Below, piece after piece: positions 57,522 through 62,689 of a stretch of 64,000 bases of DNA (position 1 is the first letter of the stretch; each line of letters begins with the position of its first letter). A model generated the notes under the pieces. That model searched no databases, was not told where the DNA came from, and saw only the letters and a list, made by a program, of their open reading frames with translations. This DNA comes from Escherichia coli (GTDB lineage Bacteria; Pseudomonadota; Gammaproteobacteria; Enterobacterales; Enterobacteriaceae), in NCBI RefSeq assembly GCF_044324785.1, contig NZ_CP172127.1. The stretch is one strand, 5' to 3'. Made by a program: the position numbers and the translations under genes.

Positions 57522-58484
57522 TTAATACAGTTTTTTCGCGCAGTCCAGCCAGTCGCCTTTGAACGGACGCTTCATGTTTTCGATAGCGTCGATGATGTCG
57601 TGGTGAACCAGCTGTTCGTTCTGGATACCTACGCAACGACCGCCGTAACCTGCCAGCAGCAGATCGATAGCGTAAGCGCCCATACGGGAAGCCAGAATAC
57701 GGTCGTAAGGCACCGGAGAACCACCGCGCTGGATGTGGCCCAGCACAGTTGCGCGGGTTTCACGACCGGTTTCTTTCTCGATGAAATGCGCCAGTTCGTC
57801 AACATCACACATATGTTCGGTAATCGCCACGATCGCGTGTTTTTTACCTTTCGCGATACCCGCTTTGATTTCGTTTACCAGGTCTTCACGGCTGAATTCA
57901 ACTTCCGGAACTACAACGAATTCACAGCCACCGGCAATGGCCGCAGCCAGGGTCAGATCGCCACAATAACGACCCATCACTTCCACCACGGAAATACGCT
58001 GGTGAGAAGAAGAGGTGTCACGCAGACGGTCGATCGCTTCTACAACGGTGCTCAGCGCAGTGAAGAAACCGATAGTGTAGTCAGTGCCTTTGATGTCGTT
58101 GTCGATAGTGCCAGGCAGACCGATGCACGGGAAGCCCATTTCGGTCAGACGCATTGCACCCATGTAGGAACCGTCACCGCCGATAACCACCAGCGCGTCG
58201 ATACCACGTTTTTTCAGGTTTTCGATAGCCACGGCGCGGATGTTCTCGTCGCGGAATTCCGGGAAACGCGCAGAACCGAGGAACGTACCGCCACGGTTGA
58301 TCATGTCAGAAACGCTGTAACGGTCTAGCTGTACCATACGGTCTTCATACAGACCCAGATAGCCGTCATAAATGCCCATTACTTCCAGACCTTCTGTCAG
58401 CGCAGAACGAACAACCCCGCGAATTGCGGCGTTCATGCCTGGCGCATCACCGCCGCTTGTCAACACACCGATTTTCTTAATCAT
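57522..58484 (-). CDS. pfkA: 6-phosphofructokinase I
   Basis: ORF over-extended to 58580; canonical Pfk[30 protein letters not shown] starts at ATG 58484 (320 aa). Confidence 0.98.
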
Positions 58485-58664
58485 GACTACCTCTGAACTT
58501 TGGAATGCAAAATGAAATCTGTTGCCGGAAGTCTTCTTGCACATCGAAGTGATCCAACGAATGTGCAAATAGTATAACAATCACTTCCTGCTGAATTGAT
58601 TCAGGTCAGGCCAAATGGCGGTATTTTATACACAAAATGCGGGTCTGGCTCTCTTTTATACTGA

Positions 58665-59567
58665 TTATGAAAGCATAGACCGTTTACCCTCTCTGGGTAC
58701 GACGGAACAGGGGTCCTGATGGATAATCACATCCGATCCCGGAAAACGCCGTAAAATAGCCTGCTCTACCTGATCCGCCACCATATGTGCCTGAACCAAA
58801 GGCAGAGAGTCTTCCATTTCCAAATGAATCTGAATAAAGCGGGTCGGCCCTGACTGCCGCGTGCGAAGATCGTGAGCGCCGCTAACACCCGGCCAGGAAG
58901 TCACGATATCAATAATTTCTTGCCGTTCTTCATCAGGCAATGCGCGATCCAGTAATGACTGTACCGCCTCATATCCCATGCGTAACGCGCTATATAAAAT
59001 ATAGATGCCGATTCCCAATGCAAACAGAGCATCGGCGCGATGCCAGCCGTACCAGGACAACCCCAGCGCCAGCAGAATTGCGCCGTTCATCATAACATCA
59101 GACTGGTAATGTAGCATATCAGCCCGCACCGCCTGGCTTTGCGTCCGGCGCACCACCCACCGCTGAAACGAGACAAGGATAATCGTACAAATTAGCGCCA
59201 CAATTGTCACGATTACCCCGACGCCTGGATCTGTCATCGGTGTTGGAGATATCAAATGTTGAATACCCGTCAAAAAGAGGAATAGTGCCGAACCGGAGAT
59301 AAACATACTTTGCGCCAGCGCCGCGAGGGACTCAGCTTTACCGTGACCAAACGAGTGATTATCGTCGGCAGGTTGCAGGGAATATCGCACCACCAGTAAA
59401 TTCGTCAACGACGCGCCGATATCCACCAGCGAATCCACCAGCGCGGCGAGAATACTCACCGACCCGGTATACCACCATGCAAAAATTTTAATCAGCAATA
59501 GCAGTGAAGCCATCGCCGTTGCAGCAATCGCCGCCCGACTGACCAGCCGTCCATAAGATTGATTCAT
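58665..59567 (-). CDS. fieF: cation-diffusion-facilitator Fe/Zn efflux transporter
   Basis: ORF to 59585; canonical FieF/Yii[37 protein letters not shown] starts at ATG 59567 (300 aa). Confidence 0.95.
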
Positions 59568-59648
59568 AAATACTCCCGCTATCAACTGACGCTAGTATAA
59601 CGGAAGCAAATCATCTGCAATGCATTAAGCAGCAGGCAAATTGAGGAT

Positions 59649-59706
59649 AAAAAAAACCCCCACATCATGTGGGGGAAGACAGGGATGGTGTCTATGGCAA
59701 GGAAAA
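59649..59706 (-). ncRNA. cpxQ: CpxQ-like sRNA from the cpxP 3' UTR (ends at the cpxP terminator)
   Basis: Minus strand reads ...ccttgccatagacaccatccctgtcttcccccacatgatgtgggggtttttttt, matching my recollection of CpxQ; terminal hairpin ccccca-catgatg-tggggg plus U-run. The 5' end is approximate (produced by RNase E processing). Confidence 0.5.
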
Positions 59707-59715
59707 CAGGGTTTA

Positions 59716-60216
59716 CTACTGGGAACGTGAGTTGCTACTACTCAATAGCTTCAACGATGAACTTTTTTGCCATTGCGTCACGTCACGCAACTGCTCCATT
59801 CGTTGTTGATGTTTCTCATTTAAAACCGCTTGCTGCTCCGGCGTTAACAGGCGATACATTTGGTTGCGGACTTTTGCCATCTCAACCTGACGAGCAATTT
59901 GCTCATTCGCCATTTTTTCTGCCTGTGCGCGCACAGCGTTTTCATCAAAATTTTCTGCGGTGACAAGGCGATGCATTGTCTCCAGTTCGCTAACATTAAC
60001 AGGAGGCTGTTCGTGCCGGGCCTGTTGCATAAGATCTCGCATCTGCTGACGCTGATGTTCGGTTAAACTTATGCCGTCGAACATATGGCTCTGCGTACTG
60101 CGCTGCGTAAGTTCTTCACCCGGATGCCAGTTATCGCCTGAACCGACTTCAGCAGCGTGGCTTAATGAACTGACTGCCAGCGTTGAGGCCATGACGGCAG
60201 CGGTAACTATGCGCAT
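59716..60216 (-). CDS. cpxP: periplasmic Cpx-pathway inhibitor / adaptor CpxP
   Basis: ORF MMRIV...; canonical Cpx[37 protein letters not shown] from ATG 60216 (166 aa); two LTxxQ motifs. Confidence 0.95.
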
Positions 60217-60295
60217 CATTTGCTCCCAAAATCTTTCTGTCGCGATTCAACGATAGAGAGTTTACGATTCAGGCTGCAAACATGCGTCAGGGGGT

Positions 60296-60310
60296 GTAAA
60301 ACAACGTAAA
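60296..60310. promoter_or_regulatory. CpxR-P binding box (GTAAA-N5-GTAAA) in the cpxP/cpxRA divergent control region
   Basis: gtaaaacaacgtaaa matches the CpxR consensus tandem GTAAA pentamers with a 5-bp spacer. Confidence 0.75.
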
Positions 60311-60365
60311 GTCATGGATTAGCGACGTCTGATGACGTAATTTCTGCCTCGGAGGTATTTAAACA

Positions 60366-61064
60366 ATGAATAAAATCCTGTTAGTTGATGATGACCGAGA
60401 GCTGACTTCCCTATTAAAGGAGCTGCTCGAGATGGAAGGCTTCAACGTGATTGTTGCCCACGATGGGGAACAGGCGCTTGATCTTCTGGACGACAGCATT
60501 GATTTACTTTTGCTTGATGTAATGATGCCGAAGAAAAATGGTATCGACACATTAAAAGCACTTCGCCAGACACACCAGACGCCTGTCATTATGTTGACGG
60601 CGCGCGGCAGTGAACTTGATCGCGTTCTCGGCCTTGAGCTGGGCGCAGATGACTATCTCCCGAAACCGTTTAATGATCGTGAGCTGGTGGCACGTATTCG
60701 CGCGATCCTGCGCCGTTCGCACTGGAGTGAGCAACAGCAAAATAACGACAACGGTTCACCGACACTGGAAGTTGATGCCTTAGTGCTGAATCCAGGCCGT
60801 CAGGAAGCCAGCTTCGACGGGCAAACGCTGGAGTTAACCGGCACTGAGTTTACCCTGCTCTATTTGCTGGCACAGCATCTGGGTCAGGTGGTTTCCCGTG
60901 AGCATTTAAGCCAGGAAGTGCTGGGCAAACGCCTGACGCCTTTCGACCGCGCTATCGATATGCACATTTCCAACCTGCGTCGTAAACTGCCGGATCGTAA
61001 AGATGGTCACCCGTGGTTTAAAACCTTGCGTGGTCGCGGCTATCTGATGGTTTCTGCTTCATGA
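60366..61064 (+). CDS. cpxR: OmpR-family response regulator CpxR
   Basis: 232-aa ORF MNKILLVDDDRELTSLLKELLEMEGFNVIVAHDGEQALDLL; receiver domain plus winged-helix C-terminus. Confidence 0.98.
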   Translation: MNKILLVDDDRELTSLLKELLEMEGFNVIVAHDGEQALDLLDDSIDLLLLDVMMPKKNGIDTLKALRQTHQTPVIMLTARGSELDRVLGLELGADDYLPKPFNDRELVARIRAILRRSHWSEQQQNNDNGSPTLEVDALVLNPGRQEASFDGQTLELTGTEFTLLYLLAQHLGQVVSREHLSQEVLGKRLTPFDRAIDMHISNLRRKLPDRKDGHPWFKTLRGRGYLMVSAS

Positions 61065-62434
61065 TAGGCAGCTTAACCGCGCGCATCTTCGCCATCTTCT
61101 GGCTGACGCTGGCGCTGGTGTTGATGTTAGTTTTGATGTTACCCAAGCTCGATTCACGCCAGATGACCGAGCTTCTGGATAGCGAACAGCGTCAGGGGCT
61201 GATGATTGAGCAGCATGTTGAAGCGGAGCTGGCGAACGATCCGCCCAACGATTTAATGTGGTGGCGGCGTCTGTTCCGGGCGATTGATAAGTGGGCACCG
61301 CCAGGACAGCGTTTGTTATTGGTGACCACCGAAGGCCGCGTGATCGGCGCTGAACGCAGCGAAATGCAGATCATTCGTAACTTTATTGGTCAGGCCGATA
61401 ACGCCGATCATCCGCAGAAGAAAAAGTATGGCCGCGTGGAACTGGTCGGTCCGTTCTCCGTGCGTGATGGCGAAGATAATTACCAACTTTATCTGATTCG
61501 TCCGGCCAGCAGTTCTCAATCCGATTTCATTAACTTACTGTTTGACCGCCCGCTATTACTGCTGATTGTCACCATGTTGGTCAGTACGCCGCTGCTGTTG
61601 TGGTTGGCCTGGAGTCTGGCAAAACCGGCGCGTAAGCTGAAAAACGCTGCCGATGAAGTTGCCCAGGGAAACTTACGCCAGCACCCGGAACTGGAAGCGG
61701 GGCCACAGGAATTCCTTGCCGCCGGTGCCAGTTTTAACCAGATGGTCACCGCGCTGGAGCGCATGATGACCTCTCAGCAGCGTCTGCTTTCTGATATCTC
61801 TCACGAGCTGCGCACCCCGCTGACGCGTCTGCAACTGGGTACGGCGTTACTGCGCCGTCGTAGTGGTGAAAGCAAGGAACTGGAGCGTATTGAAACCGAA
61901 GCGCAACGTCTGGACAGCATGATCAACGATCTGTTGGTGATGTCACGTAATCAGCAGAAAAATGCGCTGGTTAGCGAGACCATCAAAGCCAACCAGTTGT
62001 GGAGTGAAGTGCTGGATAACGCGGCGTTCGAAGCCGAGCAGATGGGCAAGTCGTTGACGGTTAACTTCCCGCCTGGGCCGTGGCCGCTGTACGGCAACCC
62101 GAACGCCCTGGAGAGTGCGCTGGAAAACATTGTTCGTAATGCTCTGCGTTATTCCCATACGAAGATTGAAGTGGGCTTTGCGGTAGATAAAGACGGTATC
62201 ACCATTACGGTGGACGACGATGGTCCTGGCGTTAGCCCGGAAGATCGCGAACAGATTTTTCGTCCGTTCTATCGGACCGATGAAGCACGCGATCGTGAAT
62301 CTGGCGGTACGGGCTTAGGGCTGGCAATTGTTGAAACCGCCATTCAGCAGCATCGTGGCTGGGTTAAAGCGGAAGACAGCCCGCTGGGCGGTTTACGGCT
62401 GGTGATTTGGTTGCCGCTGTATAAGCGGAGTTAA
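61061..62434 (+). CDS. cpxA: envelope-stress sensor histidine kinase CpxA
   Basis: 457-aa ORF overlapping the cpxR stop by 4 bp; H-box SHELRTPLTRL; HATPase motifs DDDGPGV and GGTGLGLAIV. Confidence 0.97.
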   Translation: MIGSLTARIFAIFWLTLALVLMLVLMLPKLDSRQMTELLDSEQRQGLMIEQHVEAELANDPPNDLMWWRRLFRAIDKWAPPGQRLLLVTTEGRVIGAERSEMQIIRNFIGQADNADHPQKKKYGRVELVGPFSVRDGEDNYQLYLIRPASSSQSDFINLLFDRPLLLLIVTMLVSTPLLLWLAWSLAKPARKLKNAADEVAQGNLRQHPELEAGPQEFLAAGASFNQMVTALERMMTSQQRLLSDISHELRTPLTRLQLGTALLRRRSGESKELERIETEAQRLDSMINDLLVMSRNQQKNALVSETIKANQLWSEVLDNAAFEAEQMGKSLTVNFPPGPWPLYGNPNALESALENIVRNALRYSHTKIEVGFAVDKDGITITVDDDGPGVSPEDREQIFRPFYRTDEARDRESGGTGLGLAIVETAIQQHRGWVKAEDSPLGGLRLVIWLPLYKRS

Positions 62435-62444
62435 ACTCGGCGCA

Positions 62445-62625
62445 GGGCCGTCCCCTTCGGGGTCAAGGCAACAGGTCAGCACTGTGCGAACTGATACCCT
62501 CACCCCGGCCCTCTCCCTGAAAGGGCGAGGGGGAAAAACGTAGCCCTGTTCAGCAACGGAGCTGAGCACCGCTCCGGACAGTCCCCTCGCCCCTCTGGGG
62601 AGAGGGTTAGGGTGAGGGGAAAAAT
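62445..62625. repeat. GC-rich intergenic repeat cluster (boxC-like), copy 3, composite
   Basis: Contains ccctcaccccggccctctccctgaaagggcgaggggg and tcccctcgcccctctggggagagggttagggtgaggggaaaa (the latter near-identical to 61-102). Confidence 0.6.
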
Positions 62626-62689
62626 TCAGCACAATGCAAACGGCACTGCTCTCACCGGAAACCATGCCAGATTTCGTATTAAGACAGCC

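Follow-up and report, generated by a model that had tools for sequence, protein, structure and literature searches.

A canonical-looking cpxP-cpxQ/cpxRA envelope-stress locus with a perfect CpxR box in an Escherichia coli chromosome

The 64-kb stretch of DNA analyzed here, which we refer to as the window, was assigned to an E. coli chromosome in reverse orientation relative to K-12, on the basis of the list of open reading frames (ORFs) and a reading of positions 58000-61200, and the region corresponds to the 88-min region of K-12. The minus strand carries sbp, pfkA, fieF, and cpxP, in this order, and the plus strand then carries cpxR and cpxA. According to the ORF list and the RefSeq annotation, cpxP (59716..60216, minus strand; 166 aa plus stop) encodes the periplasmic Cpx modulator, with its ATG at 60216 and, in the ORF list, its stop codon at 59716-59718. 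A divergent control region of 149 bp (60217..60365) separates cpxP from cpxR (60366..61064, plus strand; 232 aa), whose ATG is at 60366 and which encodes the response regulator that binds the CpxR box, and cpxR is followed by cpxA (61061..62434, plus strand; 457 aa), which encodes the sensor histidine kinase; both genes were identified as ORFs and from the RefSeq annotation. The segment under study, 59649-60310, comprises cpxQ, the cpxP coding sequence, the cpxP promoter, and the CpxR box, where 59649 corresponds to the terminal U of CpxQ as annotated and 60310 is the final base of the box. On the minus strand, fieF lies directly downstream of cpxQ, and the flanks are identical to those of K-12 through the start of fieF. 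A 771-nt query reaching from cpxQ through the start of cpxR was found in 5425 of 5426 complete E. coli genomes, under features annotated as cpxP and cpxR, and was 100% identical in many E. coli chromosomes.

The CpxR box of the control region, GTAAAACAACGTAAA, is located at 60296..60310 on the plus strand and reads TTTACGTTGTTTTAC on the strand of cpxP; its distance to the downstream start codon is 80 nt for cpxP and 55 nt for cpxR. It reads GTAAA-ACAAC-GTAAA and shows no mismatch to the published CpxR consensus, 5'-GTAAA(N5)GTAAA-3' (De Wulf et al. 2002). The original prediction of a perfect GTAAA-N5-GTAAA box between the divergent cpxP and cpxRA genes was thus confirmed, and GTAAAACAACGTAAA was the sole perfect occurrence on both strands of the window. 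Boxes with one mismatch numbered six against 3.2 expected; these sites were not above chance, and the perfect site alone stood out. In comparison with the CpxR~P site described at the cpxP/cpxRA promoter (De Wulf et al. 2002), both pentamers were perfect, the spacer was 5 nt, and no difference was detectable. The equivalent box in Yersinia, approximately 55 nt upstream of cpxR, has been reported to bind CpxR~P by footprinting, mutagenesis, and EMSA, and the window box shares the geometry of this validated site, with approximately 55 nt from the box to the cpxR ATG. By analogy with this literature, CpxR~P would be expected to bind at 60296-60310 in this strain.

Conservation of the box was counted on the 80 Enterobacteriaceae loci that have upstream sequence. 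Both pentamers, together with the length of 5 nt and the sequence of the spacer between them, were invariant in all 80 loci, in which the box sits 93-100 nt upstream of cpxP. Across the whole cpxP-cpxR spacer, most positions matched the window in at least 90% of 79 other aligned species. A lone GTAAA half-site was also read on the minus strand at 60259..60265, where it overlaps the hexamer TAAACT. This hexamer is a candidate for the cpxP -10 element, and the transcription start would presumably lie some 35 nt ahead of the cpxP start codon. A consensus promoter scan found no sigma-70 promoter in the spacer upstream of cpxP, as would be expected of a promoter that depends on an activator, although this absence of a consensus match is not positive evidence.

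We compared the locus with that of K-12. The amino acid sequences of CpxP, CpxR, CpxA, and FieF were identical to those of K-12, with no internal stops, and all of the nucleotide differences in their genes were synonymous (one in cpxP, 7 in cpxR, 20 in cpxA, and 11 in fieF). The cpxP-cpxR spacer was identical at 149 of 149 positions. An 821-nt alignment of the window with K-12 contained two differences, namely a synonymous AAT/AAC change in cpxP and one base in the terminator loop of CpxQ. It was also observed that the segment formed by cpxQ, cpxP, and the spacer (59649-60365) differed from K-12 at 2 positions in approximately 720 nt (0.3%), compared with 1.0-1.5%, all synonymous, in the flanking genes fieF (58665-59567; 11/903), cpxR (7/699), and cpxA (20/1374). 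The lower divergence of the cpxQ-cpxP-spacer segment may reflect an extra constraint on the cpxP transcript and its control region, or chance.

Immediately beyond the cpxP stop lies cpxQ, UUUUCCUUGCCAUAGACACCAUCCCUGUCUUCCCCCACAUGAUGUGGGGGUUUUUUUU, at 59649..59706 on the minus strand, a small RNA of 58 nt that comes from the 3' UTR of cpxP and is co-linear with b4716 of K-12. In the RefSeq record of K-12 MG1655, "ncRNA cpxQ, b4716" is placed at 4106330-4106387, 9 nt past the cpxP stop, and this feature mapped base for base onto window positions 59706 to 59649 of the minus strand with an identity of 57/58. It had been suggested that the cpxP 3' UTR matches CpxQ including its terminator hairpin, and both the alignment to b4716 and a hairpin at 59657-59675 upheld this suggestion. 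The single difference from K-12, C42A, affects the terminator loop, of whose three bases it is the third. The 58-mer of the window was found exactly in approximately 4190 of 5424 E. coli records, and approximately 1220 records, K-12 among them, were off by one or two bases. The window thus carries the majority E. coli CpxQ allele, and C42A is a common loop polymorphism. In most E. coli genomes, RefSeq/PGAP lists no feature under cpxQ, so the value of the present assignment is confined to annotation.

In the predicted fold of CpxQ (-17.4 kcal/mol, z = -2.7), a single-stranded stretch at the 5' end precedes a hairpin of 5 bp, and a G+C-rich terminator of 8 bp with a U8 tail completes the RNA. 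The 5' part, nt 1-13 (59694..59706, minus strand), is unpaired in the minimum free energy (MFE) structure and includes the published seed bases C5, C6, and U7. The mutations C5G/C6G/U7A have been reported to abolish cfa repression, nhaB pairs with CpxQ at U7, and CpxQ is reported to start with U; the 5' end UUUUCCU at 59706 agrees with the numbering of both the published mutants and the nhaB pairing. Downstream, a small hairpin (59677..59693, minus strand), in which nt 14-18 pair with nt 26-30, was predicted in both the MFE and centroid structures. The intrinsic terminator shared by cpxP and CpxQ (59649..59675, minus strand) was recovered both by the terminator scan and by folding; it comprises an 8-bp stem with six G-C pairs (hairpin at 59657-59675), a 3-nt loop, and the U8 tail, and it has the make-up of a typical Hfq-binding 3' module. 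The CpxQ 5' end has been reported to depend on RNase E, and from the K-12 annotation of this end the processing site would be CUG/UUUU (59705..59709, minus strand), with the cut between 59707 and 59706. Compared with the RNase E motif RN/WUU, positions +1 to +3 of this putative site are UUU and fit the WUU half, but position -2 is U rather than the preferred purine.

To place CpxQ in an evolutionary context, we used the cpxP loci of 80 species representatives from 20 named Enterobacteriaceae genera, in which CpxP is 71-100% identical. Across the 80 other species, the mean identity to the window was 0.980 over all 58 nt of CpxQ and 0.998 over nt 1-36, compared with 0.765 over the 3'-terminal 150 nt of cpxP, 0.649 at the third codon positions of these 150 nt, and 0.394 over the 70 nt next downstream of CpxQ. 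This profile agrees with the literature, according to which no other part of cpxP is as conserved as the CpxQ region. CpxQ nt 1-13 were invariant in 81 of 81 loci, an optional extra U aside, as were the seed bases C5, C6, and U7, and the 31-mer CCTTGCCATAGACACCATCCCTGTCTTCCCC of CpxQ was present in every one of the 81. Among 25 distinct sequences, compensatory changes were detected at two pairs of the terminator stem (A-U to U-A or C-G; C-G to U-A or G-C); they cover 15 cells, none of 500 shuffles reached the observed covariation score, and in slid controls the paired fraction fell to 43-61%. All five pairs of the small hairpin were invariant across the same 25 sequences, and because these pairs never vary, covariation is uninformative there and neither supports nor refutes this predicted structure.

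The 3' portion of cpxQ coincides with a phage attachment site. A 47-nt stretch consisting of CpxQ nt 15-58 plus ATC (59646..59692, minus strand) is the attB core of Wphi-type P2-like phages, with 47/47 identity to attP. In a search of phage genomes, this core was identical in 62 records, including Wphi, L-413C, fiAA91-ss, and R18C. Nine of the 62 matched nearly the whole 76-nt query; among those inspected, the match lay at the end of the record or the record was a bacterial contig, and these near-full-length matches have the appearance of junctions between prophage and host, not of attP. A 32-kb circular P2-like phage record showed a 45-nt identity adjoining the integrase. On the bacterial side, searches of E. 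coli returned approximately 670 more places than records (5424 records), and in strain CH436 a P2-like prophage with int, a C-type repressor, and cox begins directly after cpxQ. A P2-type integrase immediately follows cpxQ in 6 of the 80 species representatives, and prophages occur there in several genera. In the window, no prophage and no attL-attR duplication was found at this site, and cpxQ runs straight into fieF as in K-12; the Wphi-type attB is vacant.

The Wphi site has been published as "cpxP-fieF" in E. coli W ("88.6 min"), with an MG1655 coordinate of 4104392 in an older numbering. CpxQ was described later, and in the literature searched we found no link between CpxQ and the Wphi attachment site. 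The small conceptual link made here is that a classic P2-like attachment site lies within a small-RNA gene whose description followed the mapping of the site by 17 years. The table of PMC3032704 gives rybB, cyaR, and cpxP-fieF as the sites of P2-like prophages in four laboratory E. coli strains; with CpxQ, all three of these P2-like sites are 3' ends of Hfq-dependent small-RNA genes. Since the Wphi-type attP holds CpxQ nt 15-58, including the conserved block in the interior and the terminator that binds Hfq, each lysogen carries at attR, beside fieF, an additional CpxQ module that is truncated at the 5' end. In the free Wphi-type phage, this copy is located downstream of ogr. We considered whether termination of ogr in Wphi might be provided by the CpxQ terminator copy in attP; this idea is weakened, because ogr has a terminator-like hairpin of its own directly after its stop codon, approximately 100 nt upstream of the 47-nt core. 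If transcribed, the phage-borne copy could act as a CpxQ mimic or as a competitor for Hfq or targets and thereby alter the Cpx response, a proposal that we regard as speculative and unlikely, and one that does not apply to the window, where attB is empty.

Several other explanations of these features were weighed against the reading of the locus as a CpxR-controlled cpxP gene with a 3' UTR-derived small RNA. For the operator, the GTAAA-N5-GTAAA match might be a product of chance with no regulatory role. Perfect matches occurred at a mean of 0.08 per shuffled window, and at least one was present somewhere in 7 of 100 shuffles. However, the single match of the window falls within the 149-bp spacer, which makes up approximately 0.2% of the window, the site is invariant in 80/80 species with its spacer included, and the orthologous site of Yersinia is bound by CpxR~P in experiments. 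Taken together, these observations leave a chance origin of the box with a negligible probability. For the 3' UTR, the simplest competing proposal is that it functions as a transcription terminator alone and not as a regulatory RNA, and a strong intrinsic terminator does fill its 3' 27 nt. Against this, termination does not require the 31 nt that precede the stem, and yet they are practically invariant in 81 species, when by comparison the third codon positions of cpxP are only 65% conserved. The published genetics and biochemistry also contradict a terminator-only role, as an Hfq-bound 58-nt species and derepression by seed mutants have been reported for K-12 and Salmonella. We consider such a role very improbable.

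The conservation of the 3' UTR could alternatively reflect its use by phages rather than a small-RNA function, given that CpxQ nt 15-58 plus 3 nt form the attP/attB core of Wphi-type phages and that prophages occupy the site in several genera. Yet preserving attB brings the hosts no gain, CpxQ nt 1-14, which are not part of the core, are equally invariant, and the targets of phages are typically sequences under prior constraint, which are restored when the phage integrates; this explanation has next to no probability in our judgment. The strand of the RNA was a further point, since the true RNA might lie on the plus strand, antisense to the 3' end of cpxP. A search of window positions 59000-61000 found no CpxQ family in Rfam 15, and the only meaningful Rfam match was Hrs1 (RF02628), which cmscan placed at 59649-59721 on the plus strand with 44.5 bits and E = 7.7e-7. 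This score is, however, under the gathering score of 56.4, and the consensus of the Hrs1 model, which opens with A7 and then forms a G+C hairpin, mirrors a terminator and lacks a 3' U-tail. In the source paper, hrs1 of Erwinia amylovora (Hfq-regulated sRNA 1) is located between cpxP and fieF, is co-oriented with both ("> > >"), and has a Rho-independent terminator (Zeng and Sundin 2014). Furthermore, a pattern scan found no plus-strand promoter or terminator at the locus. A plus-strand RNA is accordingly rated as highly unlikely, and the minus-strand CpxQ is the RNA considered below. Matches to the Rfam families NsiR1 and anti-hemB were dismissed as terminator look-alikes (E 0.3-0.5).

The same comparison bears on the relationship between Hrs1 and CpxQ. 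Hrs1 was described as Hfq dependent and classed as Erwinia specific (Zeng and Sundin 2014). When reverse-complemented, its consensus shares the blocks CCUUGCCA and UCCCUGUCU and the terminator with CpxQ, with a length of 74 nt compared with 58 nt for CpxQ. From these shared blocks, CpxQ appears to have its Erwinia orthologue in Hrs1, and most simply the Rfam RF02628 model would have been built from the complementary strand. This is of minor value for curation: Rfam is without a CpxQ family, and Hrs1 is apparently this RNA, entered in the reverse orientation.

We propose that the locus is the canonical E. coli cpxP-cpxQ/cpxRA envelope-stress locus and works as characterised, a reading to which we assign a probability of about 0.95. 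Under this proposal, envelope stress would activate the kinase CpxA, leading to phosphorylation of CpxR, and CpxR~P would bind the tandem GTAAA pentamers at 60296-60310, switching on the cpxP promoter and autoregulating cpxRA. Translation of the cpxP transcript would yield the periplasmic modulator CpxP, and RNase E, with the help of Hfq, would cleave the cpxP mRNA 9 nt past the stop to release the 58-nt CpxQ (59706 to 59649), the 3' end of which would be formed by the intrinsic terminator of cpxP. Hfq-bound CpxQ would then use two seeds, the single-stranded one at its 5' end and another that is also conserved, to pair with and repress mRNAs such as nhaB, skp, agp, ydjN, fimA, and cfa. The literature for K-12 and Salmonella describes an Hfq-bound, Cpx-induced CpxQ of approximately 58 nt that represses nhaB, skp, cfa, and others, and it is by analogy with these reports that RNase E/Hfq processing and target regulation by CpxQ are expected in this strain. 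The original prediction that the envelope-stress circuit is intact held at the sequence level, with CpxP, CpxR, and CpxA identical to K-12 and a spacer identity of 149/149; the strain appears to carry an unaltered Cpx core circuit, including the sensor, the regulator, the feedback protein, the small-RNA arm, and the operator. The cpxP-CpxQ locus with its CpxR box is already known, and as judged from its alignment to the reference the strain departs from it there by the common loop polymorphism alone.

Among known small RNAs, the closest counterparts are the CpxQ RNAs of E. coli K-12 (b4716) and Salmonella, described by Chao and Vogel (2016) and by Grabowicz et al. (2016), in which the position, strand, 58-nt length, terminator, and seed bases are the same; from K-12 CpxQ, the window copy differs in the one loop base, C42A. 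SroC, SdhX, NarS, and MicL-S are other Hfq-dependent small RNAs that are derived from 3' UTRs and processed by RNase E. As in these RNAs, the mRNA terminator of cpxP doubles as the 3' end of the small RNA and RNase E would make the 5' end near the stop codon, whereas the parental genes, seeds, and regulons differ.

Among the loci compared, the U-tail of CpxQ is directly followed in several representatives of Citrobacter, Salmonella arizonae, Enterobacter, and Intestinirhabdus by small lipoprotein-like, metallopeptidase-like, or alpha-amylase-like ORFs, in place of fieF or a P2-type integrase. The 3' boundary of cpxQ thus appears to form a junction with variable DNA in general. The cpxA-yiiM spacer (62435-62689; 255 bp) differs from those of K-12 and CH436, which have REP-type repeats; in the window it is G+C rich and hairpin forming, of the CCCTCACCCC...GGGTGAGGGG type. 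The full-length spacer sequence was present in only 160 of 5426 E. coli genomes, but pieces of it occurred approximately 5 times per genome, so that it resembles a dispersed repeat of the MITE/REP-like kind. The ORF at 62393-62665 on the minus strand and the weak Rfam matches to microRNA precursors are probably artefacts of this spacer repeat.
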